NCBI GenBank assembly: GCA_034670305.1
Contig: JAXMNT010000015.1
Location: 1 to 64,000, forward strand
Direction: 5' to 3'
Source of the DNA: Deltaproteobacteria bacterium
GTDB taxonomy: Bacteria; Myxococcota_A; Polyangia; Polyangiales; Houyiibacteriaceae
Length of the DNA stretch: 64,000 nucleotides
Shown: positions 10,312 to 58,935 of the stretch, one piece after another
Layout of the letters: every line of letters starts with the position of its first letter
How positions within the stretch are numbered: the stretch's first letter is position 1
Made by a program: the position numbers and the translations under genes
The notes under the pieces: generated by a model
Told to the model about the DNA's origin: nothing
Databases searched by the model: none
Seen by the model: only the letters and a program-made list of their open reading frames with translations

Positions 10312-10532
10312 CGTCGGCGTCGGATTCGGCGTCGGCGTCAGCTTCGGCGTCGGAGTCGGAGTCGGATTCGGCTTCGGCTTCGGCTTCGGCTTCGGCGTCG
10401 GAGTCGGCGTCGGCTTCGGCGTCAGCTTCGGCTTCGGAGTCGGCTTCGGCGTCGGCGTCGGCATCGGAGTCGGCTTCGGCCTCGGCTTCGGCTTCGGCAT
10501 CGGATTCGGCTTCGGCTTCGGCGTCGGCTTCG
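10312..10532 (+). repeat. Intergenic (NNNCGG)n hexamer tract between convergent genes
   Basis: cttcgg/cgtcgg/agtcgg/attcgg units in constant 6-nt phase. Confidence 0.95.
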
Positions 10533-10588
10533 ACCGTCTCCATCCGCTTCGTCACGGGCAACACCGCCCCCCGCCCTCGTCACGCTGC

Positions 10589-12235
10589 TCAGTCGAGTTC
10601 GCGGTCGAACGCTTCGAGCCCCACGAGCCGCCCGTTCATCGTCGTCATGGGCGTCGTCATCGGCGTCGTCATCGGAACGACTTCGACCATGCGCGGGGGA
10701 TCCGGGTCGCGCTCCACCGCCATCGTCGGAGGCGTGGTCGTCATCACCGCCGTCTGCTGCGACGCGGTCTGCTGCATGGCGCTGACCATGCGCGGGCGCA
10801 TCGAGGGGCGCTCGACCATGCGAGGGGCCGCGATCTCGGGTGCCGCGACCATCTCGGTCGCGATCGGAACGGGCTGCGCCATCTCCACCATCGCGGGCGG
10901 ATCGACCTCAACGGGATCCGCGACCGGCTCAACCGTCGCTGCGGGCTCGAGCGTCGTCTCCGGCGGCGTCTCCGGCGGCGTGTCCGGCATCAGCAACGCC
11001 GAGCCCACGCCCACCCCCGCCCCGACCAGCACGATCGCCGCCACGATGAGCGGCGCGGGCAGACGGCGTTTGGGCGGCGCGACCATCAGGCTGCCGGGGG
11101 TCCGCGAGACGCCCGAGGCATCGATGTCGGAGACGCTGTCCAGCGAGCCCTGCATGCGCCCATGCATGTCGGTCGCGGAGACGTGGCTCGTCTCCTCCAC
11201 CAACTGGAAGGGCTGGGAGTTGTCGAGACCGCCCGAGTCGTCGCCCGAGAGCGTGACCTGAATGTTCTGGCGCATCTTCTCGAGCGCCACGCCACCCGCC
11301 GCCCGGACGAACTTGCCGATGTCGGTCGGAGAGGGGAGCTCGACGCCGCCCTTGCGCGCCGCCTCGCGCAATCGGAGCGCGAACTCCGATGCGGTGTCCG
11401 GCCGGTCGTCGACGCCGCGCTCGAGCGCCCAGAGCACCACCTCGCTCACTTGTTCCGGCACGTTCGACCGCACCTGGTGCGGCGGAAGAATCGGCATGTT
11501 CGCGACCCGCTCCATCGTCGCGAGCGGGTGCTCGGCCACGAAAAGGCGCTGGCCAGAGATCATCTCCCAGGCGACCACGCCGAGCGAGAAGAGGTCCGCC
11601 CGGCGATCGATCTGCTCGGAGCGAAGTTGTTCGGGCGCGCAGTAAGCGAACTTGCCCTTGATGCGGCCGGCGTCGGTCTTGGTCATGCGGAGCACCGCGC
11701 GGGCGACCCCGAAGTCGGTCAAACGCGCGCGGCCATCCACGCCGACCAGGATGTTCTGGGGAGACACGTCGCGGTGCACGATTTCGAGTGCCTCGCCGAT
11801 GGGGGTCGACGCTTCGTGCGCGGCATCGAGCCCCTGGGCCGCTTGCGCCACGAGTTCGATCGCGATGCCGAGCGGCACCACCCGCCGCACCTTGGCGGCT
11901 TCTTTCATGATGCGGCCGAGCGTCACACCGACCACCAGCTCCATCACGATGTAGAGCGCGCCTTCGGAGTCCCGCCCGAGATCGAGCGTCTGAACCACGT
12001 GCGGGCTGGAGATGTTCGCCGCGACCCGGGCCTCGTCGAGGAACATCGTGACGAACTCTTCGTCGTCCGCGAGCGTCGGCAGCATGCGTTTGACGGCGAC
12101 GAGTTTCTGGAACCCCGCCTCGCCGAGCACCCGCGCCGCATACACCTCGGCCATGCCGCCCGCCGCGATGCGGAACAGCAGCTCGTAGCGCCCCATGGTC
12201 CGGGGCGGTCCGTCTGCGCCAAGCGCCAAAGCCAT
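10589..12235 (-). CDS. Membrane-anchored Ser/Thr protein kinase
   Basis: GGMAEVY, VAVK, HRDVSPQN, DFG, GKFAYCAPE; TM segment then Pro/Thr/Met-rich tail. Confidence 0.95.
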   Translation of the reverse strand: MALALGADGPPRTMGRYELLFRIAAGGMAEVYAARVLGEAGFQKLVAVKRMLPTLADDEEFVTMFLDEARVAANISSPHVVQTLDLGRDSEGALYIVMELVVGVTLGRIMKEAAKVRRVVPLGIAIELVAQAAQGLDAAHEASTPIGEALEIVHRDVSPQNILVGVDGRARLTDFGVARAVLRMTKTDAGRIKGKFAYCAPEQLRSEQIDRRADLFSLGVVAWEMISGQRLFVAEHPLATMERVANMPILPPHQVRSNVPEQVSEVVLWALERGVDDRPDTASEFALRLREAARKGGVELPSPTDIGKFVRAAGGVALEKMRQNIQVTLSGDDSGGLDNSQPFQLVEETSHVSATDMHGRMQGSLDSVSDIDASGVSRTPGSLMVAPPKRRLPAPLIVAAIVLVGAGVGVGSALLMPDTPPETPPETTLEPAATVEPVADPVEVDPPAMVEMAQPVPIATEMVAAPEIAAPRMVERPSMRPRMVSAMQQTASQQTAVMTTTPPTMAVERDPDPPRMVEVVPMTTPMTTPMTTMNGRLVGLEAFDRELD

Positions 12236-12333
12236 ACGTCAGCGTAGCAGGTAGGGCGCCGCTGTACCGCAAGACCGCCGATCCGGCCGATCCGGGCGAC
12301 AACCTCGGCCCCATCCTGGCCCATCTGCGCCGG

Positions 12334-12804
12334 TCAGGGCGGGCAGCTCGGTCCGCCGGTCTGCCAGGCGCCATCGACACAGCGGCTCGTCGAGATGCAG
12401 CAGTCTCCGTAGCCGCACGCCTGGTCGGCCTGCTGACAGGGCGCGCCAGTCTCGGGGATCTGACCTGGGCACCCGTCGGGCCGCGTGGTCCCCGGTCCGT
12501 AGTTGCAGCGCCAGGTCGGCGGGCCGGGCGCCCAGTTGGGACCTGGGTCGATGCCGCCGCAGTAGCCCGTGGTGCCGCAGCTGCAGGTGCCTTCCGGGAA
12601 GGTGCACTCGGTGGCGGTCGCCGCATCGCAGTACCCGCCGCCCTGCGCGAACGACGCCGGGCACTCTCCCGAAGCCTGAGGCGTGGTGCCGTCGTTCTGG
12701 AGGCTCGTCGCGTTCCCCTCTCCGCCCGACGATGTCTCGTCCTCCGGAGACGAGGTCTGGCAACCGAAGAAACACACGACCAAAACAAGACGGGCGACGC
12801 GCAT
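12334..12804 (-). CDS. Small Cys-rich lipoprotein
   Basis: Signal ending FFGC; two CP....G..C....C modules. Confidence 0.65.
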   Translation of the reverse strand: MRVARLVLVVCFFGCQTSSPEDETSSGGEGNATSLQNDGTTPQASGECPASFAQGGGYCDAATATECTFPEGTCSCGTTGYCGGIDPGPNWAPGPPTWRCNYGPGTTRPDGCPGQIPETGAPCQQADQACGYGDCCISTSRCVDGAWQTGGPSCPP

Positions 12805-12852
12805 GCGTTTGCAGTACCAGCCGGATCGTCGCGGCCGCAAGCGTCTGCGGGT

Positions 12853-13617
12853 TCAACGCGTGGGTGGAGGCCCGACCAGATGCAGCGCGTACGGAAGTGG
12901 ACCACGCGGTGGCAGGTGCCCGGTCGGCCAACGCGCGCCGGTCGAAGGACCGCCGTCGAGGTTGAGGGCTTCTTCGCAGCCACCGGCCTGCAGCTGCGTG
13001 GCGAGTTCGAGCAAGGTCGGGCCCTCCCCTTCTTCCCCCGGCACGACGACGACCTCGAGCACCTGGCCGCCGCTCCGGATGCAGAGCGCGGTCCGCGCGG
13101 CGCGCCGGCCGCTCTCCGACTGGATGTTGATCTCGGAGTTCACGACGAGGCGCGGCCGGCCCTGAATGGCGAAGCGGGGCATCGCGGCTGGAACCTCGAA
13201 GATCTCTCCGTCGTGTTGTTCGAACCCCGCGTCACCGAACACGAGCACGCCACCGCCGAGCGAGCGGTCGTAGGACGCGACTTCGGCGCCGTCGACCACG
13301 AGCCACCCTTTCGGGCGCACTTCGCGATCGAAGAAGCCGCCGTTGACGACGACCCCTCGGCGGACCGCGGGCAGCCGGACGTTCTCTTCTTCGAACCGCA
13401 AGAGCGCGACGGAGACATCGGTTCCGAAACGCCACCGCGGCACGGTGGGCGGGGGCGCGACCAGCGGGGTGACGTTCGAGGGCGGTGGTTCGGGCTCTTG
13501 GCGGTGGACCTCGGGTTCGACGGCGCCGCCACAGCCGAACGAGCCCGCGAAGCACAGGGCAAGGACCCGCAAGGAGCGATGGATCGGCACTGGGGAGCGG
13601 CGGTCGGGAGACGTCAT
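12853..13617 (-). CDS. Phosphodiester glycosidase (NAGPA-like) family lipoprotein
   Basis: VNGGFF, RTALC, ALNLDGGPST motifs; start uncertain. Confidence 0.8.
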   Translation of the reverse strand: MTSPDRRSPVPIHRSLRVLALCFAGSFGCGGAVEPEVHRQEPEPPPSNVTPLVAPPPTVPRWRFGTDVSVALLRFEEENVRLPAVRRGVVVNGGFFDREVRPKGWLVVDGAEVASYDRSLGGGVLVFGDAGFEQHDGEIFEVPAAMPRFAIQGRPRLVVNSEINIQSESGRRAARTALCIRSGGQVLEVVVVPGEEGEGPTLLELATQLQAGGCEEALNLDGGPSTGARWPTGHLPPRGPLPYALHLVGPPPTR

Positions 13618-13681
13618 GCTAGAGAGGGTCGGCGAGTCGAAGCACGCGCTTCGAAAACAACGCCGCAGGACGAAGGATTCC

Positions 13682-14533
13682 ATGTCGCACTGGTACGAAG
13701 AAGAGTTTCAAGCCACCCGACTCTCGCTCGAGGTCACGAGGAGCGTCTTCAAGGGCAAGAGCGAGTTCCAGACCGTCGAGGTCTTCGACACGGTGGCCTA
13801 CGGCCGCGCGCTGGCGATCGACGGCGTGTTCATGACCAGCGAAAAGGACGAGTTCCACTACCACGAGCTGCTCTCGCACCCGGCGATGTTGACCGCGTCC
13901 GATCCGAAGCGGGTGCTGGTCATTGGCGGCGGCGACGGTGGCACGGTGCGCGAAGTGCTTCGTCATCCGGGCGTCGAGCAGTGCGTGATGATCGAGATCG
14001 ACGAACTCGTCGTGACCGCGTGCAAACAACACATGCCGATGATCGGAACCGCGTGGGACGACCCGCGCCTCGATGTGCGCTTCGCCGACGGCATCGACTA
14101 CGTGAAGAACTCGGACGAAGAAGCGTTCGACGTCATCTTGCTCGACGGCACCGATCCGATCGGCCCGGGCGAAGTGCTCTTCGGCATGCCGTTCTTCCGG
14201 GGCTGCAAGCGCATGCTCAAACCGGGCGGCGTGATGGCGCTCCAGTCCGAGACCCCGATGTTGATGCGCGACGTGTTCTTCGAGACCCAGAAGAAGCTCG
14301 GCGAGCTCTTCGAGAAGGTGCACCCCTACTTCGGGCCAGTGCAGCTCTACCCATCCGGGATCTGGAGCTGGACCTGGTGTTCGGACACCCAGGACCACCG
14401 CGCGCCGGACGAGACGCGGGCCGCGGCCATCGTGCCCGCCTGTACCTACTACAACCTCGACATCCACCATGGCGCGTTCGCGCAGCCGAACTACGTGCGG
14501 CAGGGCCTCGCGTCGCTTCGGGAAGAAGGCTGA
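13682..14533 (+). CDS. speE: Spermidine synthase (polyamine aminopropyltransferase)
   Basis: [32 protein letters not shown]. Confidence 0.95.
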
Positions 14534-15420
14534 TGCCAGGCGGCCTCGGCGCACCGAACGCACTCGACCGCGCCGCGCATCGTCGGAGCGACGAGGCATG
14601 GCTCACAGCCAAGATCGCCGACCCACAGTCGCAGTTCGTTCCGATCTGGCGCAACCGGTCGCTGGTCTCCGCGGAGCGGCCGCCGGTCATGGTCCGGACG
14701 GACGGTGAAGCGATCGCCACCGTGCTGGGCCGCCCGCCCCAGCTCGCGGACGTAGTCTTCTTGGGCGTGGACGGGGAGGTGGCGCACTTCGCGATCGACC
14801 TGAGCCCGCTCGACGAACCGGCATTCGAAGACGCCAAGTTCCGAGACTTGCGCATGGTCGGCGCGTTCATGGCGATGACCGAGTTCACGCCGCTGGCCTA
14901 CGCGCGTGGCATCACCCGCTTCGAACGGAAGACGAAGTTCTGCGCGGCGTGCGGCGGTGCGCTGACCACCACGCGCGCCGGGTTCGCCAAGCGGTGCGCG
15001 GGTTGCGACCAAGAGACGTTTCCGCGCGTCGACCCGGCGGTGATGATGCTGGTGACCTTCGAAGACCGCTGCTTGCTCGCGCGACAGGCGGGGTTCCCGC
15101 CCGGCATGGTCTCGGCGCTCGCAGGGTTCGTGGAGCCTGGCGAATCGGTCGAAGCCTGTGTGCACCGCGAAACACTCGAAGAAGTCAGCCTGCCGCTGCG
15201 CAACGTGTCGTACGTCGCCTCGCAGGGGTGGCCCTTCCCGCAGTCGTTGATGATCGGCTACCGATGCGAAGCCGAACACGACGCGTTCGCGCTCGACGAA
15301 GACGAACTCGAAGCCGGCCGCTGGTACACCCGCGACGAGCTGCGCACCCCGAAGGGGTTCTTCTACCCGCCGCCGATGTCGCTCGCGCATCGGTTGATCC
15401 AAGCGTTCCTGAACGAATAG
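14533..15420 (+). CDS. nudC: NAD(H) pyrophosphatase NudC
   Basis: FCAACG...CAGC zinc ribbon, FPRVDPAV, Nudix AGFVEPGE....[21 protein letters not shown] overlap. Confidence 0.95.
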
Positions 15421-15425
15421 CCAGA

Positions 15426-15563
15426 GCCTCGGCTTCGGCTTCGGCGTCGGCTTCGGCGTCGGCCTCGGCTTCGGATTCGGCTTCGGCGTCGGCTTCGGGA
15501 TCGGCGTCGGCGTCGGCTTCGGGATCGGCGTCGGCTTCGGCCTCGGCTTCGGCCTCGGCCTCG
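15426..15563 (+). repeat. Intergenic (NNNCGG)n hexamer tract between convergent genes
   Basis: cttcgg/cgtcgg/cctcgg/gatcgg units. Confidence 0.95.
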
Positions 15564-15566
15564 CCG

Positions 15567-15971
15567 CTACTCGTCGCGGACCTCGTTCACCGTGCCGTAG
15601 CCAGCGGTGACGAAGAGCGCCGTGCACGAGCCCTCGACGGTCGCGGTGTGCCAGACCCCGCGCGGGTTGATCGCGCCTTGGCCAGCCTTCATCGGGATCT
15701 CCGTCCGCACACCATCGACCTCCTGGATCAAGGTCATGGACCCCGCGATCACATAGACGAGCTCGGCGCCCTCGGGGTGCATCTCCCAGGTGCTCCAGTC
15801 GCTGTCGAAGGAGTGCACGGCGACCAAGCGGCCCTCCACCCCGTCCTCGGAGTGGTTCTTGCCGTAGGTCTGGTACCACTGTGGGGTGCCATCGAACGAC
15901 GGCAGGACGACGGCGGTGGCGCCGAGGCCGAGGTGGACGGGGTGTTCGCCAAGATCGAAGGGTTCGGTCAT
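15567..15971 (-). CDS. Cupin domain protein
   Basis: [16 protein letters not shown] and NPRGVWH cupin motifs. Confidence 0.9.
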
Positions 15972-16042
15972 GCGCGGAGCATACGTCGATCCAGGGGGCG
16001 GTTGAGGTTGAACCGCGGGCGGCGTTCTTGCACCGTGCGGGC

Positions 16043-17020
16043 ATGGGTAAAGCAGTACGGATTCAGGGATCGGGCGGACCGGAAGTGCTCTCGATCGAAG
16101 GCTACGAGTGTCGACACGCGGGACCCGGCGAGGTGCGGGTCTCGGTGGCCGCCGCGGGGTTGAACCGGGCGGACTGCCTTCAGCGGCGCGGGTTCTATCC
16201 GGCGCCACCAGGCGCACCCAAGGACATCCCCGGTCTCGAGTTCGCCGGGACCGTCTCGGACGTCGGCGAAGGCGCACGCTGGTCGGTTGGCGATCGGGTG
16301 ATGGGCATCGTGGCCGGTGGCGCGATGGCCACCGAGTTGGTCGTGCACGGCCGCGAGCTCATCCCGGTGCCCGCGAACTTGGAGTTGCACGCCGCCGCGG
16401 CGTTGCCCGAAGTGTTCGCGACCGCGCACGATGCGCTCTTCGGTCACGCGCGGCTGCGCATGGGCGAGACGGTGCTCGTGCATGCGATCGCGAGCGGGGT
16501 CGGCACCGCCGCGCTGCAGCTCGCGCACAGCGTGGGGGCCCGCGTGGTCGGGACATCGCGCTCGACCGAGAAACTCGATCGCTGCGCCGAACTCGGTCTG
16601 GAGTTCGCCGTGAACACCCGCTCGGGGTCGTTCGCGAAAGAGGTCGCCGCCCTCGCCCCAACGGGGTGCGATGTGGTCCTCGACACCATCGGCGCGAAGT
16701 ACCTCGAAGAGAACCTACAGGTGCTGGCCCGCCAGGGACGCATCGTGACGCTCGGACTGCTGGGCGGGGCCAAGGGCGAGATCAACCTCGGTGCGCTGCT
16801 GGCCAAACGTGCCACGTGGATGGGCTCGGTGTTGCGGGCCCGCCCGCTCGAAGAGAAGGCGGGCCTCGCCCAGATCTTCCGTCGCGAGATGGTGCCGCTC
16901 TTCGAACGGGGCGCGCTGGTCCCGGTGGTGGATGCGGTGCTGCCGATGGAGGAGGTCGCCGAAGCGCACCGGCGCATGGACCACAACGAGACGTTCGGAA
17001 AGATCGTCCTGACCTGGTAG
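16043..17020 (+). CDS. NAD(P)H-quinone oxidoreductase (zeta-crystallin/PIG3 MDR family)
   Basis: [36 protein letters not shown]. Confidence 0.92.
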
Positions 17021-17082
17021 GCGCGCTCCTGGCCGAGGCGAACTCGCTCGGTCCGAGCGGACGACCGGTGTACGGTGGCGCC

Positions 17083-17454
17083 ATGTGGAAGCTGATCCTG
17101 GTCGGATGTCTCCTCCTGAACGCGTGCGGCGGGGACGAACGGTACGCGGGCGCGGAGCACGCAGTGCGGCTGGCGTCGCGGGCGCTTGTGGACGTCGAGA
17201 CGAGTGGCGGCGAAGACCCTGACCTACAGCAGGCGCTTCAGGAGAGTCACGACTGGCTCGAGCCCGCCGAGACGGCGATCGAACTGTGGAGCGAGGGCGG
17301 CGACGTCGCGTTCGACCGAGTCGCGCCTTGCCTGGGGGTCGCGCTGACCTCGGTCCGTGAACGACTCGCGACCCTGGAGCGCGAGATCCCGCCATCCCTG
17401 GAACAAGCCGAAGCGGAGACGCTGCAAGCCAGCGAAGAAGGCTGTCAGCGGTAG
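17083..17454 (+). CDS. Small hypothetical lipoprotein
   Basis: MWKLILVGCLLLNACGG lipobox; helical acidic body. Confidence 0.65.
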   Translation: MWKLILVGCLLLNACGGDERYAGAEHAVRLASRALVDVETSGGEDPDLQQALQESHDWLEPAETAIELWSEGGDVAFDRVAPCLGVALTSVRERLATLEREIPPSLEQAEAETLQASEEGCQR

Positions 17455-17464
17455 CAACGGTTGG

Positions 17465-23693: not shown

Positions 23694-23759
23694 GTGCTGG
23701 CTCCGGGAACCGCAGGTGCTGGCTCCGGGAACCGCAGGTGCTGGCTGCGGGAGCCGCAG
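23694..23759 (+). repeat. Three tandem 22-bp repeats GTGCTGGCTCCGGGAACCGCAG
   Basis: Two exact copies (23694, 23716) and one with 2 mismatches (23738). Confidence 0.9.
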
Positions 23760-26034: not shown

Positions 26035-26131
26035 CGCGGCTCTCGCCGCCAGACAGGAACCGCCGACGCCCTGGGACGGATGGGCGACGGCGGACGCATT
26101 TCGGGTCGAGTGAGGCTCGAGTCGGAGGCTC

Positions 26132-26201
26132 AGTCGCTATCGCTATCGCTCTCGCTATCGCTATCGCTATCGCGCGAGTCGCGCGAGTCGCGCAGTCGCT
26201 A
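26132..26201 (+). repeat. (TCGCTA)n hexamer tract plus short duplications between convergent genes
   Basis: tcgctatcgctatcgctctcgctatcgctatcgcta; gcgcgagtc x2. Confidence 0.85.
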
Positions 26202-30968: not shown

Positions 30969-31008
30969 CGGCTCGCTTCGCGAGACCTGCCTGACCCGCG
31001 TGACCGCG

Positions 31009-31050
31009 CTACCTGGCGACGGCTACTTGGCGACGGCTACTTGGCGACGG
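31009..31050 (-). repeat. Three tandem 14-bp copies of the gene end CCGTCGCCARGTAG
   Basis: ctacctggcgacgg, ctacttggcgacgg, ctacttggcgacgg. Confidence 0.9.
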
Positions 31051-31428: not shown

Positions 31429-32145
31429 ATGGCATCGACGGCACCCTCGTTGAAACGGCCCGCCCCGCCGCGACTGGCCACGGTGGCCGTGGTGGCGATC
31501 TTGGGGTTGGCGCTGGGGGTGTGGGCGGTGCGGGCGACGATCACCCCGGATCGTCGGGCGCTGGAGGCGGGCGGGGAGCCGGGGGGCTTGGACTCCGAAG
31601 CCGCTTCTGAAGGCGCTTCCGCTTCTGAAGCCGAAGCCGAGGCCGAAGCCGAAGCCGAAGCCGAGGCCGAAGCCGAGGCCGAAGCCGAAGCCGACGCCGA
31701 AGCCGAAGCCGACGCCGAAGCCGAAGCCGAAGCCGACGCCGAAGCCGACGCCGAAGCCGAAGCCGAAGCCGAAGCCGAAGCCGAAGCCGAAGCTGCCGCC
31801 GCCTCCGCTGAGCTCCGGTTCGTGCGGGGACGGGTGGCGTACGTCCGCTGTGTGGGGGGCGAAGGGGCGGATGGGCGATGCCCCAGGGATCGGGCGCTCG
31901 AGGATGGGGCGTGGGCGGCGCTCGAGGGGCTCACGACCTGTGAGCCGAGTCTCGGGCCAGGCGAAGGGGATGTGCGGCTGCACTACCAGGGCGGGGTGGC
32001 GGAGCTGAGGTTTCGCGACGTGGGGGACACGCCCTACCCGCTGGCTCAACTTCGCCGGTGTCTGCTTCCAGGCATGACCTCGGTGCCGACCGTTCTGAAC
32101 GCGGATCCGCTGACCGTCTCGTTCCGATTCGAGCTGACCCGCTAA
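31429..32145 (+). CDS. Membrane-anchored protein: TM, (EA/DA)n linker, Cys-containing C-terminal domain
   Basis: Hydrophobic N-terminal helix, acidic hexamer-derived linker, ends VSFRFELTR (TonB-C/AgmX-like by eye). Confidence 0.65.
31624..31795 (+). repeat. In-frame (GCCGAA/GCCGAC)n tract
   Basis: Directly visible; encodes EAEAEA/DA. Confidence 0.95.
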
Positions 32146-33174: not shown

Positions 33175-33196
33175 GAGTCGGGAAATCGCCCGCGAA

Positions 33197-33561
33197 ACGG
33201 AACCGGAAGCGGAAGCGGAAGCGGAAGCGGTAGCGGTAGCGGTAGCGGTAGCGGTAGCGGAAGCGGAAGCGGAGTCGGAAGCGGTAGCGGCTTGGGAGTC
33301 GGTAGCGGCTTCGGTAGCGGCTTCGGATTCGGCTTCGGATTCGGATTCGGGGTCGGCTTCGGCGTCGGCTTCGGCATCGGCTTCGGGATCGGCTTCGGCG
33401 TCGGCTTCGGGATCGGCTTCGGATTCGGGGTCGGCCTCGGGGTCGGGGGTCGGCTTCGGCTTCGGCTTCGGGGTCGGCTTCGGCGCCGGCTTCGGGGTCG
33501 GCATCGGGGTCTCGGCTTCGATCCGTAAGGGCAAGGGCAAGGGCAAGGGCACGGGCAAGGG
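33197..33561 (+). repeat. Composite hexamer tract (GGAAGC/GGTAGC)n-(TTCGGC etc.)n-(GGGCAA)n between convergent genes
   Basis: Directly visible; CGG kept in 6-nt phase. Confidence 0.95.
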
Positions 33562-33563
33562 TG

Positions 33564-34853
33564 TTACCCCACGATCCCCAGCGCCACCGCCGCCGCGAGC
33601 AGCGCGCCGCACGCGAGCAGGCCCCAGAAGAAGAAGCGCATCATCGTGCCGAGCTCGGTGCGCAGCGCGTCCTGCTCGGCGCGGCGCACCGTCTCCTTGC
33701 CGAACGTCCGCTCGAGTTCGGCGCGGGCCTCGCGCCGCTCCTCCGCGTCCATCGGATCGGATCCGGCGAGGTGGTAGAGGTGGTGCTGCACCTCGTGGTC
33801 GATCGTCTCTTCGATCTCCGCGTCGACGTCGTACGGGGCCTCTTCGAACATGGAGCGAAAGGTCCGGTAGTAGAGCGTGATCTCGAACCGCACCGAGGTG
33901 AACGTCGGCCCGTCGTTGTCGTAGATCGGTTGGTAGCTCCCGAGCAGCGGTTCGCCGCCATCGTCGACCGCCGGCACCCCGTCCTCCACCACCAGCACGA
34001 GCCCGCCGACGTCGCGCGCGCGGTACACCTGGTCCGCGATCGCAACCGAGCGCTGCGAGAACGCGTCGAAGGAGGGGAACGTGGCCGAGTCTCGGTCGGC
34101 GTCCGCGAGCGGCGCCCACGATCCTTCCAACTCGCGCAGCGAGGGGGTCGGGAGATCGTGGATGGCTTCGCAGTGCCGGCACCGCACCGGCACGCTGCAT
34201 CGGAGTGGGTACGTGCGGTCCTCGTAGTGCGCGCTCAGCACGTCGATGAGATCGTCGGAGGCGTCCGAAAGCAGCCGCGCGAGTTCGGCCGGATCTCGGA
34301 GGCGGCCGCGGGTGGTGTGCATCGAGACGATGCCGAGGCCGCAGACGATCGCCGGCGTGATCGCCGCGGGTGGGTCGGCTTCGACGAACTCGAAGAGCGC
34401 GATCGCATCGACCACATCGACCGCGCGGCACTCGACTTCGAGCACCCCGTCGATCGGCGTGTCGAGACTCAGCAGCAGCGGCGCGGTTTCTTCTTCGTCC
34501 GGGTGGGCGGGGGTGAGCAGCGGTTCGAGCAGCGCGTCGGCCGCGGGGCGCGGAAGTCGTTTGCCGCAGTTGCGGCAGCGGTGCGGGGCCGGCCGTTCGC
34601 GCGCCAGCACGCCGCACCGCTCGGCGAGATCCCGGACCAGATGAAAGTCGCTGACCGGCAACGCATCGAGCGACGACACGCCATCGATCCGCACCGCGCC
34701 GCGATCGAACGCGTGGAAGAAGCGACCGGCGAACCGGCGGCGGCCACCGACCACATCGTCGGCGAAGGGCCGCTCCGGTAGCGCGAGTCGAACCTCGAGC
34801 GTCGAGCCGTCGACCCGGGTCAGCGTGTGGGTGAGCGCCGGTGCGACGGTCAT
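33564..34853 (-). CDS. Hypothetical protein: two CxxC, C-terminal zincin-like metallopeptidase domain, TM anchor
   Basis: CRNC, CRHC; LLGSY...ITLYYRTF...TIDHEVQHH (HExxH); hydrophobic C-terminus. Confidence 0.7.
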   Translation of the reverse strand: MTVAPALTHTLTRVDGSTLEVRLALPERPFADDVVGGRRRFAGRFFHAFDRGAVRIDGVSSLDALPVSDFHLVRDLAERCGVLARERPAPHRCRNCGKRLPRPAADALLEPLLTPAHPDEEETAPLLLSLDTPIDGVLEVECRAVDVVDAIALFEFVEADPPAAITPAIVCGLGIVSMHTTRGRLRDPAELARLLSDASDDLIDVLSAHYEDRTYPLRCSVPVRCRHCEAIHDLPTPSLRELEGSWAPLADADRDSATFPSFDAFSQRSVAIADQVYRARDVGGLVLVVEDGVPAVDDGGEPLLGSYQPIYDNDGPTFTSVRFEITLYYRTFRSMFEEAPYDVDAEIEETIDHEVQHHLYHLAGSDPMDAEERREARAELERTFGKETVRRAEQDALRTELGTMMRFFFWGLLACGALLAAAVALGIVG

Positions 34854-42063: not shown

Positions 42064-42120
42064 AGCGTGCCTGAAGGGTACCCCCGCGAGCGCGGTCCCC
42101 GCCAGCGGCGGCGAGCCGCT

Positions 42121-42431
<311 letters not shown>

Positions 42432-42444
42432 CCGGGCCCCCCGA

Positions 42445-45407: not shown

Positions 45408-46931
45408 GTGGCTGAAGACGACGAGACCGAAACGGCGGACGAGAGGGACGCCGGCAGCGATGAGACGGGGCGCGCCGCGTCTGGTTCGGCCGATTCCGAT
45501 GCGGAATCCGGTGCCGAGGGCGACGCCGCTGCCGACGCAGACTCAGGCAAAGAGGGCAAGGGCAAGGGCAAGGGCAAGGGCAAGGGCAAGTGGCTGGTTC
45601 CGCTCTTGGTCTATGTCGTGTGTGCGGGGGTGTACTGCGCGACGTTGACGGGGCGGGCGTGGGCGCCGAGTCCGGACAACCACTTCGTGCACCTCGCGGC
45701 GTCGTGGTTGAACGGGCAACTGCATCAGCAAGGGGACCCGCCCGGCAACAACGACTGGGCGTGTTACGACCGAGAGGAGCACGACTCCTGCCCGAACAAC
45801 CGCTGGCACTTCTCGGACTCGGACCGCTACCGCTGGTACGTCTCGTTCCCGCCCTTCCCGGCCGCCGTGATGGCGCCGATCGTCGCGGTCGCAGGCACGG
45901 ACATTCCGGACCGGTTGATCTGGGCGCTGCTCGCCGGCTTCGGACCGATGTTGCTGCTGCTCTTGCTCGGTCGACTCCGGCGGAGCGGCCGTTCGAAACG
46001 CACCCGCACCGAAGACCTCTTGCTCGTCGCGCTCTTCGCGTTCGGCAGCGTCTTCTACTACACGTCGGTGCAAGGCACGGTGTGGTTCGCGGCACATGTG
46101 GTCGCGGTCAGCCTGACCTTCCTCTACTTGCTCTTCGGCATCGACGCGCGGCGGCCCATCCTCGCGGGCATCGCGCTCGGCTGCTGCTTTCTCACCCGGC
46201 CCACCACCGCACTGCTCGCGATCTTCTTCGGACTCGAGCTGATGCGGGTGAACCGGCGGGCCGGCGCACCCTTCGACGAAGACGCGTACTGGCCCAAGCG
46301 GCTGTGGCAATGGGTCCGCGGCACCGACTGGAAACCGGCGTTGCGGACCGGCGCGCTCTTCTCCATTCCGATCCTCGTCTGCGGCGCGTTCGCGATGTGG
46401 CACAACCACGCGCGCTTCGAGGACTCGTTCGAGTGGGGCCACTCGTTCCTGCAGATGCGGTGGCGCCCACGCATCGAACGCTGGGGCCTGTTCAGCTACC
46501 ACTACTTCGCCAAGAACCTCGCGGTGTTCGGCGCCTCCACCCCGTGGCTGACCCTCGATCCGCCCTACCTGATCGTCGGCCGCCACGGCCTCGCCCTGTG
46601 GGTCACGACGCCGGCGATCCTGCTCGCGCTCTGGCCGAAGAAACTGACGCCGCTGATGATCGGGTTGTGGTGCGCCATCCTCCCGGTCGCGGTGATGAAC
46701 CTCTGTTACCAGAACAGCGGCTGGGTTCAGTTCGGCTACCGCTTCGCGCTCGACTGGTTGCCGCTGCTCTTCGTATTGCTCGCCCTCGGCGGACGACGTT
46801 TCCGGCTCGGATTCGTGGTGCTGTTGATCTGGTCGATCGCCATCAACGCTTTCGGCGCGTTCACCTTCGATCGCGCACACCAGTTCTACGACGGAGACGC
46901 CAGCCAGGACGTGGTCTTCCAACCCGATTGA
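45408..46931 (+). CDS. Polytopic membrane protein, possible GT-C-fold glycosyltransferase
   Basis: Many TMs; YVSFPPFPA, VWF.AH, FLTRP, QFGYRF.LD; N-terminal acidic stretch plus (KG)n. Confidence 0.65.
   Translation: MAEDDETETADERDAGSDETGRAASGSADSDAESGAEGDAAADADSGKEGKGKGKGKGKGKWLVPLLVYVVCAGVYCATLTGRAWAPSPDNHFVHLAASWLNGQLHQQGDPPGNNDWACYDREEHDSCPNNRWHFSDSDRYRWYVSFPPFPAAVMAPIVAVAGTDIPDRLIWALLAGFGPMLLLLLLGRLRRSGRSKRTRTEDLLLVALFAFGSVFYYTSVQGTVWFAAHVVAVSLTFLYLLFGIDARRPILAGIALGCCFLTRPTTALLAIFFGLELMRVNRRAGAPFDEDAYWPKRLWQWVRGTDWKPALRTGALFSIPILVCGAFAMWHNHARFEDSFEWGHSFLQMRWRPRIERWGLFSYHYFAKNLAVFGASTPWLTLDPPYLIVGRHGLALWVTTPAILLALWPKKLTPLMIGLWCAILPVAVMNLCYQNSGWVQFGYRFALDWLPLLFVLLALGGRRFRLGFVVLLIWSIAINAFGAFTFDRAHQFYDGDASQDVVFQPD
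45554..45590 (+). repeat. (GGGCAA)6 tract, in frame as KGKGKG
   Basis: Directly visible. Confidence 0.9.
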
Positions 46932-49283: not shown

Positions 49284-49636
49284 ATTCGGATCGGCGGCTT
49301 CGGGGTCGGTGTCGGTGTCGGTGTCGGCGTCGGATTCGGGGTCGGCGTCGGCTTCGGGATCGGAGTCGGCGTCGCGGGATCGGAGTCGGCTTCGGCTTCG
49401 GCTTCGGGGTCGGCTTCGGGGTCGGCTTCGGAGTCGGCTTCGGGGTCGGCTTCGGCTTCGGCTTCGGCTTCGGGGTCGGGATCGGAGTCGGCGTCGAGTG
49501 ACAAACACGGGTAGGCAACCGCACATCCTCACCTTCGGATTCGGATTCGGATTCGGAGGGCACGGGCAGGGGCAAGGGCAAGGGCAAGGGAACCGCGCAT
49601 CCTCTCCTTCGGATTCGGACTCACGGGCACGGGCAA
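49284..49636 (+). repeat. Composite hexamer tract (NNNCGG)n ... (GGGCAM)n with duplicated sub-module
   Basis: ggtcgg/cttcgg/agtcgg units, then aaccgcRcatcctcWccttcggattcgga..gggcacgggca twice. Confidence 0.9.
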
Positions 49637-51253: not shown

Positions 51254-51372
51254 GACCTCTCACCCCCGCGCCCGGTTCGCGCACCGCCATGGGTGCGCCG
51301 TGCGCCGGTCGCGATGCGCCCCGCGCGCCCGCATCGATGCGCAGCGCCACGGAACGACTCCTCACATTCAGC

Positions 51373-51406
51373 CGCGCGCGTTCCCGAAAAAACGGGAACG
51401 CACACG
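51373..51406 (-). other. 14-bp RNA hairpin with U6 loop in the leader of the 51253 gene
   Basis: CGUGUGCGUUCCCG/CGGGAACGCGCGCG; two G-U pairs work only on the minus strand. Confidence 0.65.
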
Positions 51407-51481
51407 ATCGGTTCAGGAGTGGTGCGTCTCTTCGAGCATCAGGCAGCGGAACCTAAACACGCGAACGAACGCGTCAACCCT

Positions 51482-51742
<261 letters not shown>

Positions 51743-51756
51743 TCCGCGCACCACGG

Positions 51757-53043: not shown

Positions 53044-53049
53044 CGCGGG

Positions 53050-53079
53050 AGCCTTCGGCTTGGTCGAGAGCGCTGTCAA
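53050..53079 (-). promoter_or_regulatory. Candidate sigma70 promoter of rarA
   Basis: Perfect TTGACA, 18 nt, AAGGCT, 6 nt, GTG start. Confidence 0.5.
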
Positions 53080-53337
53080 GCGCATCGACGCGCCGAAACG
53101 GAGCACGGCGAAGCACGGACGTCAGCAGGACGAGGTTCTGGGGGTGACCGCCGGGTCCCATCGAGCGCAGCACGGACCAGATCGCATCGGGTGTGGCCAA
53201 TCGACCCGCCAGCGCGACATCCATGTCCGGGCGCTGTGGTCAAAACTACGCAGCATCGGCGTGCTGCATGCTGAACATGCGACTGCGTGGGTGTGCGATC
53301 TGCGGGGATCGTGGCCCTGCATGGACCTCACTCTCCA

Positions 53338-53353
53338 TGGCATGCGGGTTGCA
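53338..53353 (+). promoter_or_regulatory. Sigma54 promoter upstream of the PilZ gene
   Basis: TGGCATGCGGGTTGCA, near-perfect -24/-12 consensus. Confidence 0.75.
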
Positions 53354-53423
53354 GTTCCCCAAACATCCACACCCGCGACACCCAACGTCGCGGCGACCTT
53401 CGTGGTCTCACCCGTACCGACCC

Positions 53424-53825
53424 ATGCATCTGCTTCACCTCGTTCACGATCACCAGCGACTTCTCGTGAAGTCGGACATGGTCCCGTTGAGCGCGACCGA
53501 GCGGACGTGCTTGAACGCGCTGGCCCAGGCATTGGGGTCTTCGGAAGACGTGCGACGGGACGCGCCCCGGGTGGACACCCGGCTCGAAGTGCAACTCGCG
53601 AACTGCTGCGCATTCGAAGCCGCGCTCGTGCGCGACATCTCTCGAGGCGGCTTCCGCGTGTCGACGACCCTGCGCGCACGCGTCGGAGAGCGTCTGACGC
53701 TTCACGCGCGGAGCGAAGCACAAGAAGAGTTCCTGTTCCCGGTCCGAGTGGTCTGGCACGACGGCGACGCACTGGGCCTCGAGCTCATCGGCATGCCGAC
53801 CTGCACCCTGCGCCGCGCCGCCTAG
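53424..53825 (+). CDS. PilZ domain protein
   Basis: RxxxR (RDAPR) and DxSxGG (DISRGG), RVVW....GLE. Confidence 0.85.
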   Translation: MHLLHLVHDHQRLLVKSDMVPLSATERTCLNALAQALGSSEDVRRDAPRVDTRLEVQLANCCAFEAALVRDISRGGFRVSTTLRARVGERLTLHARSEAQEEFLFPVRVVWHDGDALGLELIGMPTCTLRRAA

Positions 53826-53945
53826 AGCCCGCCCACGCCGCTGACCAAGCTTCAAGGGCAGCCACTTCGCAAACCAGGCGCTCGGCTTCAGCACTCTGGC
53901 TTGTGGGCCTCGAGCCGCCAAGCGAAGCCAGCCGCGCCGCCTGAC

Positions 53946-54530
53946 TCACCGCCACGCGAAAAGCGCGTCGACGCTGGTGGGGTCGAGGAGCGCGGGGGCG
54001 AGTTTGACCTGCGCGCTCACACCGGCGTGGGCGAAGAGCCCCACACCGCCACCCTCGAGCAGCGCTTGCCACCCGGGCGAACCGACCACGAAGGGCGCCC
54101 CTTCGAGCCGCAGCCGGACGAATCCGTCGGTGCGGTCCATCACCCGGATCCGTCCGTTCGCACGCATCGACGCGCGCCACAGATGCGGCACCAGCCGCGC
54201 CAGGTGCGAGAGGCTCTTGCCGAACGCGCGCTGCCAACTCCGCTGCAGATGCGCGAGGCGCCCCGTCGTGAGCTGATCGATGATGACGTCGCGCCCAGTC
54301 GCGACCACACGTTCCCGACCGACCTCCCTCATCCAGAGATCGATGAGCGCGGACCACGCGCTGGCCGGCACCCATTTTGGCAGCGGGTCGAGTGACTGCG
54401 CGAGCGCAGGCCGGTCCTCGGCAAGCGTACGAATGAGCGCATCCCAGCGTCCTTCTTCGAGCAAGTGCTTGCGCACCGGGTACGCGATGATCCCGAGAAT
54501 CGCCGGCTCCAGATCGGGGCGCCCGTTCAT
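53946..54530 (-). CDS. Hypothetical protein (myxobacterial small-ligand-binding-like)
   Basis: 194-aa ORF; WVP...W..L.D pattern; family uncertain. Confidence 0.6.
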   Translation of the reverse strand: MNGRPDLEPAILGIIAYPVRKHLLEEGRWDALIRTLAEDRPALAQSLDPLPKWVPASAWSALIDLWMREVGRERVVATGRDVIIDQLTTGRLAHLQRSWQRAFGKSLSHLARLVPHLWRASMRANGRIRVMDRTDGFVRLRLEGAPFVVGSPGWQALLEGGGVGLFAHAGVSAQVKLAPALLDPTSVDALFAWR

Positions 54531-54570
54531 GCGCGACTCAGGGTGTGGGCGGATTGCCGCACGGGCCGCG

Positions 54571-55107
54571 TCAGCCCTCGGGGTGGGCGGTCAGAGACGA
54601 GAGGTACTCGCCGAGTGCGTCGCTGACCGTCAGGAGGTTCGGCGTGATCTGGCGGACGAAGAAGCGCTCCACCGTGTTGGAGACCGGCGTGGCGATGAGC
54701 TCTGGCACCATCGGTACCCGGCTGAGGTCGATCTTGATCTCGCCCTGGATCTCCACCCGCGTGCGACCGCCTTCGTCGAAGAAGCGGTTGGTCCCTTCGC
54801 ACCGGACGGCCTCTGGGAACGCGTGGCTGCGCAGTTTCCAATGGCAGATCCACTCGGTGTCGTCCCAGCGCGCGAAGTCGTGCCACGAGAGCACCGGCGG
54901 GAGAATCTTGGCCGCGACCGCCGGGATCTTGGCGGCGCCATACCAGACGTTCACGAGCTCCACGATCGGCGGCGCGTCCGTGCGGGACTCCACTTCGATC
55001 TTCCGGATCCGAGGCAACGCGCCCACCAGTCGAGGCATTTCGTCGCGGTACGCGCGGTAGACCCGGCTGCGGGGATGCTCGATGAGAGCGTCGGCCTCGA
55101 TGCGCAT
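54571..55107 (-). CDS. START/SRPBCC-like protein
   Basis: HPR..VY.AYRD..P.L...LP.I..IEV; W.D.A.WD; start 55107 or 55116. Confidence 0.75.
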   Translation of the reverse strand: MRIEADALIEHPRSRVYRAYRDEMPRLVGALPRIRKIEVESRTDAPPIVELVNVWYGAAKIPAVAAKILPPVLSWHDFARWDDTEWICHWKLRSHAFPEAVRCEGTNRFFDEGGRTRVEIQGEIKIDLSRVPMVPELIATPVSNTVERFFVRQITPNLLTVSDALGEYLSSLTAHPEG

Positions 55108-55153
55108 GCGGCGCACATAGCAGGCACCGCAGGGGTCGGCACGCCGAGGCCAT

Positions 55154-55194
55154 TAAACGAAACGAGCCCGCCCGACACATGGTCGGACGGGCTC
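55154..55194 (-). terminator. Rho-independent terminator of the large Cys-rich gene
   Basis: GAGCCCGTCCGAC-loop-GTCGGGCGGGCTC followed by GTTTCGTTT. Confidence 0.75.
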
Positions 55195-55209
55195 CAGAAT
55201 CGCGATCTA

Positions 55210-58146
<2,937 letters not shown>

Positions 58147-58476
58147 CACGTCAGACTCCTCCGTCGGCTGGTACGCATGCGGGCACGCAGACCTCCCCTG
58201 ACGGTCGATCGAAGCCCCCGGTCCATGCATAGCCGACGTGGGCGCTTGGAGTCAGCCCTGTGTGGTTTGATTCAATGCGAACGTGTGAAGCATCACCGCG
58301 CGAATCCTGCACACCCCGCGCTTCAACGCCTGCCGTTGGCGAGGGACGTTTGTCGTCTGAGGGACCTCCGGCCTGCCCTCCTGGCGTCCTCCCCGACTTC
58401 GCTTCGCGCGAAGAGCTGTGCACTTAGACGGTCTTCAACGCTTGAACAGCGCTCTCGACTGCGGGACGCTGGGTGC

Positions 58477-58869
58477 ATGGTCGATGAAGTCTTGGTGGAA
58501 CAGGCGCTGACCGCGCTGGGGTGGGAGACCACGCCGCACGGCAAACGCACGCTGCGATCCGTCCACGGGACCGGAGACGACGAAGTCGTCATCTACATCC
58601 GCCGCGACGACAACTGGCTCATCGGATCGGTGGTCCCGTTCCTGAGCACGCGCGGAGACAACTCCTTCGAGCTCGGCCGCTGGTTGCTTCGAATGAACCG
58701 CGACATGCACCAGTGCAAGTTCGCCTACGACGAAGACGGCGACGTCGTGCTCACGGTCGAACTCCCCACCGAGTCCCTGGACGTCGCCGAGATCGAAGCG
58801 GCCTTCGCCGCGCTGCTCGAACACGCCCAAGCCCACCGCGCCACCCTCCGCGCCGCCGCCGGCGCGTAG
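58477..58869 (+). CDS. YbjN/T3SS-chaperone-like domain protein
   Basis: LLRMN......KFAYDEDGDVVL.VELP...LD..E. Confidence 0.75.
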   Translation: MVDEVLVEQALTALGWETTPHGKRTLRSVHGTGDDEVVIYIRRDDNWLIGSVVPFLSTRGDNSFELGRWLLRMNRDMHQCKFAYDEDGDVVLTVELPTESLDVAEIEAAFAALLEHAQAHRATLRAAAGA

Positions 58870-58877
58870 GCCAAACG

Positions 58878-58935
58878 CGGCTTCGGCTTCGGCGTCGGCT
58901 TCGGCTTCGGCACCGGCTTCGGCTTCGGCCTCGGC
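58878..58935 (+). repeat. Short (TTCGGC)n tract between convergent genes
   Basis: Directly visible. Confidence 0.9.

Follow-up and report, generated by a model that had tools for sequence, protein, structure and literature searches.

The window analysed here is a 64-kb stretch of DNA at the start of contig 15 in a myxobacterial genome assembly of 7.93 Mb (68% G+C, 105 contigs). The MgsA gene of the window has its closest counterparts in metagenome-assembled genomes of Myxococcales and Polyangiales. Seven repeat tracts, located near 10312, 15426, 33197, 42121, 49284, 51482 and 58878, lie in this stretch beside genes of ordinary functions (DctQ/DctM, a Ser/Thr kinase, NUDIX and cupin proteins, a sigma-70 factor, a penicillin amidase, a GMC oxidoreductase and an MgsA-type ATPase). 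The original prediction described them as tracts in which CGG recurs on the plus strand in a near-strict 6-nt phase with a variable triplet in between, and proposed that they may represent an undescribed system. Results of our analysis with the use of Tandem Repeats Finder (TRF), a regular-expression scan and a hexamer layout confirmed the presence of arrays at all seven loci. TRF detected a period of 6 with 73-92% matches in each of them, indicating uninterrupted head-to-tail short units, and five CGG triplets at 6-nt spacing matched the window 213 times, as compared with 0.02 matches expected from 100 shuffles. The CGG triplet is indeed on the plus strand every 6 nt in all seven tracts, and all the variable triplets listed for them (CTT, CGT, ATT, AGT, GGT, GAT, AAG, TAG, CAG, CCT, and TGT) were found. 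The seven tracts are imperfect hexanucleotide arrays with (TCGGNN)n as the main module. The fixed part of this module is the 4-nt TCGG rather than CGG, and several tracts turned out to be composites of differing hexamers.

Side modules within the tracts are (GAAGCG)n, (GCGGCA)n, and (GGGCAN)n. At four composite loci the modules follow one order on the plus strand: (GAAGCG/GTAGCG)n, (GCGGCA)n or (GGAAGC)n is followed by (TCGGNN)n and then by (GGGCAN) with about six G-runs. Inside the tracts, TRF also detected periods of a higher order (12, 18, and 42 nt), and the phase is less strict than assumed, as the 33197, 42121, and 49284 tracts contain slips of +1, +1, +3, and +2 nt.

The array at 10312..10532 (+) consists of about 36 TCGGNN units, where NN is CT, CG, AT, AG, CA or CC, and includes two TCAGCT units. 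It fills the convergent gap between the stop codons of the DctM gene (10306) and the Ser/Thr kinase gene (10589), which has no canonical terminator. The 22 TCGGNN units at 15426..15563 (+) occupy the entire convergent gap between the stops of the NUDIX gene (15420) and the cupin gene (15567). The third tract starts 20 nt past the stop of the sigma-70 gene (33174) with a (GAAGCG/GTAGCG) module of about 16 units (33194..33290, +), continues with a (TCGGNN) module (33297..33520, +) that has a 12-nt higher-order period and slips in phase by +1 near 33447, and ends with 5.8 copies of AAGGGC comprising six G-runs (33527..33561, +); the C-rich complement of the latter starts 2-4 nt past the stop (33564) of the minus-strand gene 33564-34853. 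A (GCGGCA) module with a 42-nt higher-order period (42108..42239, +; 3.1 copies, 90% matches) is followed by about 23 units of (TCGGCT/TCGGTG) with a +3 slip at 42330 (42240..42381, +) and by 5.7 copies of (GGGCAC/GGGCAA) at 42405..42437 (+), the C-rich complement of which begins 13 nt past the stop (42445) of the minus-strand penicillin-amidase gene. The (TCGGNN) array at 49292..49496 (+), with a +2 slip at 49370, lies 16 nt past the GMC-oxidoreductase stop (49276) between tandem genes; downstream, four copies of TTCGGA and (GGGCAN) with six G-runs (49534..49590, +) precede the next plus-strand gene (49696) by about 100 nt. At the sixth locus, 23.5 units of (GGAAGC) (51482..51622, +) are joined by 20 units of (TCGGCG/TCGGAT) with an 18-nt higher-order period (51624..51743, +), which stop 14 nt short of the stop codon (51757) of the minus-strand MgsA-type AAA+ gene. 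The last array, about 10 units of (TCGGCT) at 58878..58936 (+), fills the gap between the stop of the YbjN-like gene (58869) and the stop of the minus-strand gene 58936-60105.

Each of the seven tracts begins or stops 1-49 nt from a stop codon according to our codon-likelihood gene calls. Four of them (10312, 15426, 33197, and 58878) separate convergent genes, and a consensus scan for a hairpin with a T-run found no intrinsic terminator in these four gaps. In these respects the original prediction was accurate. The plus-strand polarity ascribed to all tracts is a matter of seven arrays in nine, as two further arrays of the same family have CGG on the minus strand. One of them (8194..8517, -), which reads on the plus strand as (CCGANN)28 followed by (CTGANN)23, is in frame with the DctQ-type gene 7137-8561 (upstream codon score +78, stop 42 nt further on) and is the coding (D/E)(A/S/T) acidic C-terminal tail of its product. 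As delimited by the regular-expression scan, its CCGANN part covers 8194-8361 and its CTGANN part extends to 8511. The other (31627..31793, -; 31631-31792 in the same scan) comprises 27.8 copies of GAAGCC on the plus strand. The weak open reading frame (ORF) 31483-32145 would read it as (EA)n, with only a sub-threshold match to a PARP repeat, and its coding status is uncertain.

Two more arrays in the window belong to the (GGGCAN)n type: a stand-alone (AGGGCA) array of 6.3 copies (45553..45590, +) in a divergent gap, directly upstream of a plus-strand gene that starts near 45588, and a short hairpin followed by 5.5 copies of (CCCTTG/CCCCTG), C-rich on the plus strand (1..55, +), at the very start of the contig. 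The latter array type is shared with many other contig ends. A search of the whole window against Rfam 15 at the gathering score gave no matches.

The window also contains several other repeats and one misleading frame. A 72-nt tandem duplication (10034-10195; 2.3 copies, 77% matches) with short GAC/GGC runs lies within the 3' end of the DctM gene and probably encodes a repeated acidic C-terminal segment. A small composite of 6.7 copies of TCGCTA and 3.4 copies of TCGCGCGAG (26112-26199), with units unrelated to the TCGG family, is located in the convergent gap between gene ends 26034 and 26202. TRF detected in addition a 22-nt repeat of 3.0 copies (23694-23759, 95% matches) and a 14-nt repeat of 3.1 copies (31008-31050, 96% matches). 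The 1529-amino-acid (aa) open frame at 54280-58869 (+) overlaps the well-scoring gene 55210-58149 (-) of a MopE/lamin-tail-domain protein. Only its last ~130 aa (YbjN/CesT-like, 58477-58869) look real, and the frame is an example of the long spurious ORFs that are produced by the high G+C content and the arrays.

Abundance, position and unit structure of the arrays

An agnostic lag-6 scan of the whole assembly, followed by merging, identified 726 period-6 tracts of 54-535 nt (median 165 nt). They comprise 129,276 nt, which is 1.6% of the genome, and about 116 kb of the ~984 kb of non-genic DNA (~12%). The most frequent units, as read on the complementary strand, are CCGAAG, CCGACG, CCGATG, and CCGAAT. 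Convergent gene pairs, which number 974 among 5940 adjacent pairs, harbor 219 of the 693 classifiable tracts; 382 tracts are in tandem contexts (3960 pairs), 92 are in divergent ones (1006 pairs), and the remaining 33 are located at contig edges, for which there is no gene-pair count. A tract is present in 180 of 684 convergent gaps (26%). The median length of such gaps is 294 nt, of which only 96 nt is non-tract DNA, as compared to 70 nt in gaps without a tract; the other DNA of tract-bearing gaps is normal in amount, and therefore the tract is a pure addition. Tracts start at a median distance of 30-40 nt from stop codons. In tandem gaps 195 of them are closer to the upstream stop and 79 to the next start, the median distances being about 30 nt to the former and about 100 nt to the latter.

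Across the genome, the orientation of the arrays shows a bias and does not follow a strict rule. CGG is on the plus strand in 334 tracts, on the minus strand in 289, and ambiguous in 103, and there is no polarity towards genes either (87 vs. 96 in convergent gaps and 124 vs. 150 in tandem gaps). A bias was found with respect to the local GC skew computed with the tracts masked. In 382 of 623 arrays (61%; odds ratio 2.5-2.9, p ~1e-8 to 1e-10), TCGG is on the strand that is locally richer in C, and this concordance rises with the strength of the skew, from 53% at |skew| < 0.01 to 74% at >= 0.03. The bias is confined to non-coding arrays (350 vs. 208; 32 vs. 33 in coding ones) and is retained in symmetric contexts, with odds ratios of 3.7 in convergent and 4.3 in divergent gaps. 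Skew-concordant arrays are slightly longer (median 179 vs. 163 nt, p = 0.049). The suggested replichore-type signal thus has a counterpart in the data, and the enrichment between convergent genes, the proximity to upstream stops and the skew link together indicate that neither the placement nor the orientation of the arrays is random. Gene-strand bias was considered as an independent marker of replication direction and discarded, as it is uncorrelated with the skew (rho -0.08, p = 0.40, 114 windows).

The seven tracts are non-coding. Among these and the two minus-strand arrays, only 8194-8517 has coding flanks in frame, and a coding reading of the seven was ruled out by six-frame translations, flank codon scores and counts of phase junctions. 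In the whole genome, 79 of 726 tracts continue a coding frame (47 as C-terminal and 32 as internal repeats rich in A, D, E, and S). A further 266 tracts open into a downstream gene in assorted frames and were treated as upstream non-coding DNA. The non-coding tracts contain 98 out-of-phase junctions, of which 22 keep the frame and 76 break it, which is about the chance level. The unit spectra of coding and non-coding arrays are nearly identical, and the coding arrays have an invariant wobble C in the NCC codon and use GAT heavily, contrary to the codon usage of the genome. The possibility that the intergenic arrays are fossil C-terminal tails was rejected, as the strand of the acidic frame is independent of the upstream gene (124 vs. 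150).

The anatomy of the unit was studied in 10,361 non-coding and 1,164 coding units that are flanked by intact units. In the former, the CCGA core positions are fixed in 98-99%, position 5 varies with hardly any restriction (A.55, C.24, T.18, G.04; entropy 1.58 bits) and position 6 is partly free (0.91 bits). The coding units show the same core invariance, contrary to codon usage, and therefore the constraint comes from the array process and not from translation; the proteins merely accepted the single harmless frame of the arrays.

If G-T or G-U wobbles are allowed, the TCGG core is a quasi-palindrome. In the RNA folding of four window arrays, the TCGG strand gave z-scores of -6.2, -4.7, +0.6, and -0.2 (the first two arrays forming long hairpins at -92 and -78 kcal/mol), while the CCGA strand was less structured than nearly all shuffles in all four (z = +5.2, +2.0, +4.5, and +3.0). 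When the two strands were compared as DNA, TCGG was the more stable one in 98 of 100 arrays. An unusual stability of the TCGG strand as such was dismissed, as this strand is better than its own composition-matched shuffles in only 25 of 100 arrays. Because of this, the hairpin argument rests on the strand asymmetry and not on unusual stability.

In a set of 61 related genomes, the (CGGNNN)x10 pattern occurs in 41 and is missing from 20. The counts range from 1 to 8726, the highest being that of the genome studied here, followed by 4140 and 2146 in two others and by hundreds in six. The TCGG-core version is present in 30 of the 61 genomes, which represent several families of the order, with other spacers; across the order the arrays are patchy and built of differing units. 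The conservation at orthologous loci that a check in relatives might have revealed was hardly seen: among 26 3' flanks of orthologs of seven window genes in five relatives, only three carry a tract (those of DctM and MgsA in genome G017 and of the amidase gene in G057). These three tracts consist of different units, and the two that were strand-checked, both of G017, are oppositely oriented. No tract was found at 26 further MgsA loci in relatives, and no (NTGCCC)n array at eight loci in relatives that follow the amidase gene or the gene at 33564. The DctQ-DctM junction (8194-8517 in the window) is a recurrent hexamer-array site: each of the five relatives examined has a low-complexity array of its own at this place (loci L093-L097), different from the one in the window, and in G004 and G057 this is accompanied by a six-run GGGCAN array with the G-rich strand in sense. 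The loss of mismatch repair was considered as a cause of the arrays and is not needed, as mutS1 is intact here and was found in 56 of 61 relatives, tract-rich and tract-poor alike.

Support from reads was sought in the Logan contigs of four sequencing runs that belong to a single study and may represent the source sample. All flanks were matched and confirmed, but the contigs end at each array. Among the listed pieces, none spans 10309-10537 or the interiors 8242-8332 and 15456-15533, and thus the tract lengths are unverified.

The (GGGCAN)n family and the dispersed element

The G-rich arrays associated with some of the tracts form a separate family. In the window, (GGGCAN)n, or (NTGCCC)n on the other strand, is present at 1-55, 33527-33561, 42405-42437, 45553-45590, and 49557-49590. 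Genome-wide there are 431 such arrays, of which 114 are inside a dispersed element of about 130 nt and 317 are outside it. The latter show a sharp peak at six G-runs (164 arrays) and avoid genes, seven of them being located inside one. Unlike the CGG arrays, this family is polar: among stand-alone arrays of convergent gaps, 56 have their C-rich strand in sense with the abutting gene, as compared to 6 with the opposite arrangement. The (NTGCCC)n arrays start at a median of 24 nt past the stop codon, and in many cases [G/C]TAG and a short perfect hairpin lie in front of them. A perfect hairpin separates the stop from the array in 95 of 317 cases, as compared to 17 of 317 on the far side. The stop before the array is TAG in 96 of 162 cases vs. 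1535 of 5301 genes (29%) in the whole genome, a share that may itself be inflated by the TAG-linked hairpin elements.

The common order on the C-rich strand is stop codon, hairpin, (NTGCCC) with about six C-runs, and then (CCGANN)n. Among 157 G-arrays within 150 nt of a CGG tract, 137 are on the same strand and 107 follow this order. Genome G004 has 458 matches to (GGGCAN)x5 and only one match to (CGGNNN)x10, and therefore the two families spread independently. Only the (GGGCAN)n arrays, with at least four G3 runs, short loops and a dispersed intergenic location near gene ends, are predicted from their sequence to be capable of forming G-quadruplexes. A GGGCAN/NTGCCC array lies within 200 nt of 150 of 210 contig ends, compared to only 20 of 210 for period-6 tracts, and hence the G-array family is the main breaker of this assembly.

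The proposal that the C-rich strand of the tracts could serve as a Rho loading site applies only weakly to the CGG arrays. RNA of the CCGANN strand is unstructured (z +2.0 to +5.2), but its C/G ratio, calculated from the unit position frequencies, is only about 1.2. The (NTGCCC)n family fits better, being C-rich and G-poor, but its arrays are only about 33 nt long, as compared to the roughly 70-80 nt or more of unstructured RNA in a Rho utilization site.

The dispersed non-coding element of about 130 nt, present in 114 copies, comprises four G-runs of the GGGCAN hexamer and a conserved hairpin ending with CTAG. In 67 of 78 cases the element directly adjoins a TAG stop, and the genes concerned are unrelated. 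It looks like a miniature inverted-repeat transposable element or a repetitive extragenic palindrome (REP). One copy is located just upstream of a Y1-transposase gene on contig C63. The genome encodes 11 near-identical Y1 (IS200-like, PF01797) transposases of 233-249 aa with HxH and Y motifs, one at C15:125984-126268 and the others on ten other contigs. Each of these genes is bordered by its own long inverted repeats, which are unrelated to the arrays. A link of the arrays with IS200 or with REP-associated tyrosine transposases (RAYTs) was rejected on these grounds, the only Y1 gene found beside an array being there by chance.

Origin of the arrays

We favor, with a probability of about 0.6, the interpretation of the tracts as lineage-specific long simple-sequence repeats that grew by slippage, are tolerated at gene 3' ends and differ in stability between strands, and not as a discrete genetic system. 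With similar confidence we regard the genome as an extreme case of a clade-specific outbreak of hexanucleotide simple-sequence repeats. Signs of turnover and block growth were observed: the 12-, 18-, and 42-nt periods, the occupation of 3 of 26 orthologous flanks by other units, and the patchy counts in 61 relatives. The discrete undescribed system that had been proposed is not borne out, since the lack of gene polarity, the frame breaks at slips, the higher-order periods, the 23 of 26 empty orthologous flanks and the patchy units across the order give the profile of long simple-sequence repeats.

In the proposed scenario, units built on the near-invariant 4-nt core (TCGG/CCGA) and two free positions would have multiplied in place, probably by replication slippage and unequal exchange of one-unit and multi-unit blocks, with 6-nt loops presumably escaping mismatch repair. 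The arrays would persist where extra DNA is least harmful, i.e., directly past stop codons and particularly in the gaps of convergent genes, at a distance of about 100 nt from the following gene start in tandem gaps, and in frame inside genes only as an acidic, disordered (D/E)(A/S/T/P) tail or linker. The TCGG strand can fold back by means of C-G pairs flanked by G-T/G-U wobbles, while the CCGA strand cannot. Such an asymmetry may make the gain and loss of units dependent on the direction of replication, which in turn would give the excess of TCGG on the locally C-rich, presumably lagging, strand. The same hairpins might account for the constancy of the core alone.

Several points weigh against this interpretation. 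In non-coding DNA, core and spacer positions differ in variability by a factor of at least 20. Simple neutral slippage with point mutation does not predict this difference, which could equally be attributed to sequence-specific recognition. The occupation of 180 of 684 convergent gaps, together with the three orthologous flanks that carry unrelated tracts in other tract-rich genomes, could mean that the position is selected. The TCGG strand is not more structured than shuffles, either as DNA (25 of 100) or in two of the four RNA foldings (z ~0). The GC skew is not independently tied to replication, given the unrelated gene-strand bias and an assembly in 105 contigs. Length polymorphism, the hallmark of slippage, is not observable, as the run contigs break at the arrays. 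The gene contexts, finally, come from a crude gene caller of our own.

One alternative is that the arrays are selected 3'-end devices, i.e., bidirectional terminators or insulators that would form long (UCGGNN)n RNA hairpins with G-U pairs in one direction and an exceptionally unstructured, slightly C-rich and Rho-accessible (CCGANN)n transcript in the other. The twofold enrichment between convergent genes over the gene-pair share and the occupied gaps, the start of tracts at a median of 30-40 nt from stops, the four terminator-free gaps of the window, the strong folding of the TCGG strand in two of four arrays with an unstructured CCGA strand in all four, and the recurrence of unrelated tracts behind the DctM and MgsA genes of G017 and the amidase gene of G057 agree with such a role. 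Perfect hairpins (stem >= 7) also appear slightly rarer in tract-bearing convergent gaps than in length-matched tract-free ones, but the difference (10% vs. 17%) is small, and the tracts were not accepted as stand-ins for terminator hairpins. A two-faced device should prefer one face in tandem gaps, and no polarity towards the adjacent gene was seen. The lengths vary from 54 to 535 nt, the excess of C over G on the CCGA strand is only about 1.2-fold, most orthologous flanks are empty, and 20 of 61 relatives have no such array at all. We consider this explanation unlikely. The same holds for its broader form, in which the arrays would be selected as two-faced 3'-end insulators with a TCGG/CCGA core read by the termination machinery or a dedicated DNA-binding factor, or in which the arrays would be seeded by the hairpin-(NTGCCC)6 element at TAG stops, acting as a mobile terminator of a new, REP-like type. 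If the arrays were a lattice bound by a protein or enzyme that recognizes TCGG/CCGA every 6 bp, with a function in nucleoid organization or as a replication-oriented signal, this would explain the conservation of the 4-nt core alone. The 98-99% invariance of the core next to a freely varying spacer in non-coding units, the presence of TCGG-core arrays with differing spacers in 30 of 61 genomes of several families, and the orientation linked to the skew are compatible with it. Nevertheless, coding arrays are equally core-invariant, so the constraint acts wherever an array sits, as expected of a growth mechanism; the same loci hold modules of other hexamers (GAAGCG, GCGGCA), the overall concordance of orientation is just 61%, the arrays are dispensable in many relatives, and no candidate protein was identified. 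We regard the lattice as quite improbable, and even taken together, a terminator or 3'-end role and recognition of the TCGG core remain on the unlikely side, though less so than each of them singly.

The original prediction also considered a repeat-synthesizing or mobile system, of which the arrays would be footprints. In such a case they might, for instance, have been seeded by the hairpin-plus-(NTGCCC)n element at TAG stops or written by a templated polymerase. The recurring order of stop, hairpin, (NTGCCC), and (CCGANN)n with 137 of 157 nearby G-arrays on the same strand, the excess of TAG stops (96 of 162 vs. 1535 of 5301), the 114 copies of the ~130-nt element with the same core and the 11 Y1 genes might point in this direction. 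However, only about one-fifth of the oriented CGG tracts (137 of 623) have a same-strand G-array nearby, the two families are independent in G004 (458 vs. 1 matches), the CGG arrays abut stops in both orientations without a common end sequence, and the Y1 genes have different inverted repeats of their own. Inspection of these genes and their surroundings gave no evidence for such an origin of the CGG arrays, which we regard as improbable. Still less can be said for the idea that the intergenic arrays are translated or are recent remnants of acidic C-terminal tails truncated by new stops. All common units do read (D/E)(A/S/T/P) in one frame of the CCGA strand, genuine coding tails exist (8194-8517 and the 47 C-terminal and 32 internal cases), and the acidic frame is in phase with the upstream gene stop in three of six window cases. 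This last proportion is near the one-third expected by chance, however, and in tandem gaps the CCGA strand is sense in 124 and antisense in 150 cases. Moreover, 76 of 98 phase slips destroy the frame, the invariant NCC wobble and the over-used GAT run against the genome codon usage, and no gene precedes the 49284 tract on the CCGA strand, which makes this explanation very improbable. Finally, the arrays could be artefacts of short-read metagenome assembly, as the Logan contigs of four runs stop at tracts with no listed piece crossing their interiors, and as the depth over tract bins, where words are shared among arrays, is hundreds of times that of the flanks. The flanking contigs nevertheless enter the tracts for at least 30 nt at the same junctions in all four runs, every array has its own mosaic of units, coding arrays preserve the gene frame, and similar arrays are present in 41 of 61 independently assembled relatives, one of them a single contig; an artefact is thus extremely improbable.

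Long microsatellites are generally scarce in bacterial genomes, and this free-living myxobacterium represents an extreme case: six-base arrays account for 1.6% of its genome and about one-eighth of its non-genic DNA, and are present in about a quarter of its convergent gaps. It may serve as a natural experiment on the origin of repeats, their exclusion from promoters, their recruitment as disordered acidic protein tails, and the effect of replication direction, while the core-plus-spacer anatomy and the patchy spread over the clade provide handles for separating slippage from selection. On the practical side, the arrays and the (GGGCAN)n family break short-read assemblies, and the arrays yield long spurious ORFs in five of six frames, both of which matter for Myxococcota metagenome-assembled genomes and their annotation.

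Comparison with known repeat systems

Of the systems with which the arrays can be compared, REP elements and the bacterial interspersed mosaic elements (BIMEs) built of them are imperfect palindromes of about 20-40 nt headed by GTAG, with linked RAYT transposases. A likeness to them is limited to the hairpin-plus-(NTGCCC)n family, which has a short palindrome preceded by [G/C]TAG, a location just past genes and hundreds of copies. The CGG arrays are direct repeats and not palindromes, and the 11 Y1 genes are flanked by other inverted repeats. A CRISPR (clustered regularly interspaced short palindromic repeats) array was rejected, as the unit has 6 nt, of which only 2 nt vary, vs. repeats of 24-48 nt with unique spacers.

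In the case of (CNG)n triplet repeats in E. coli, expansion and deletion depend on the orientation relative to replication. Similarly to these repeats, one strand of the arrays described here can fold back by C-G pairs with mismatches while the other cannot, and the orientation is biased to the presumed direction of replication. The differences are the 6-nt unit, the wobbles that flank two C-G pairs and the lack of a structural advantage over shuffles.

With its 317 arrays, of which 164 have six G-runs, the (GGGCAN)n side family resembles the heptamer arrays of Xanthomonas (GGGNATC) and Nostoc (GGGGA(C/T)T) described by Rehm et al. 2015 (PMC4692102). According to that paper, these G-run arrays number in the hundreds, are over-represented in intergenic DNA, depleted between divergent genes and located less than 50 nt from start or stop codons, and they show a strand rule and a preferred copy number (PMC4692102). 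The family described here differs in its unit of 6 nt instead of 7 and in its preference for six G-runs rather than four. Its strand rule is mirrored, as the C-rich strand is sense after stops, while the Xanthomonas/Nostoc report places the G-rich repeat on the coding strand there (PMC4692102). The (TCGGNN)n arrays, unlike those of Xanthomonas and Nostoc, have no G-runs and cannot form quadruplexes. Marine Beggiatoaceae contain short sets of intergenic TAACTGA heptamer direct repeats, for which a regulatory role is proposed but unproven (PMC4679880). As described there, they resemble the arrays of this study in being abundant short direct repeats limited to the intergenic DNA of one lineage, and differ in being exact heptamers, while our arrays are up to 535 nt long, have two variable positions and occur also in frame in genes.

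The arrays are most similar to the long simple-sequence repeats (LSSRs) of prokaryotes, with which they share head-to-tail short imperfect units, higher-order periods, lineage-specific abundance, an intergenic or in-frame genic location and a presumed growth by slippage that escapes mismatch repair. Such repeats, which are of the variable number tandem repeat type with 5-11-nt units, were reportedly surveyed in prokaryotic genomes by Mrazek and co-workers in 2007. A tree-of-life survey of short tandem repeats states that most prokaryotic phyla show an enrichment of hexanucleotide repeats, and that the density of short tandem repeats in prokaryotes is low "with some notable exceptions" (PMC12699852). 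Our full-text literature search found nothing on hexanucleotide arrays in Myxococcota. What sets the present arrays apart from LSSRs is their extent (1.6% of the genome, ~12% of non-genic DNA and the occupation of 26% of convergent gaps), an invariant 4-nt core with a free 2-nt spacer rather than a single unit, the composite ordered modules and the orientation bias linked to the GC skew. Their density and strand bias are unusual for a bacterium, and in their overall character they have the look of runaway microsatellites and not of a molecular machine of a new kind.

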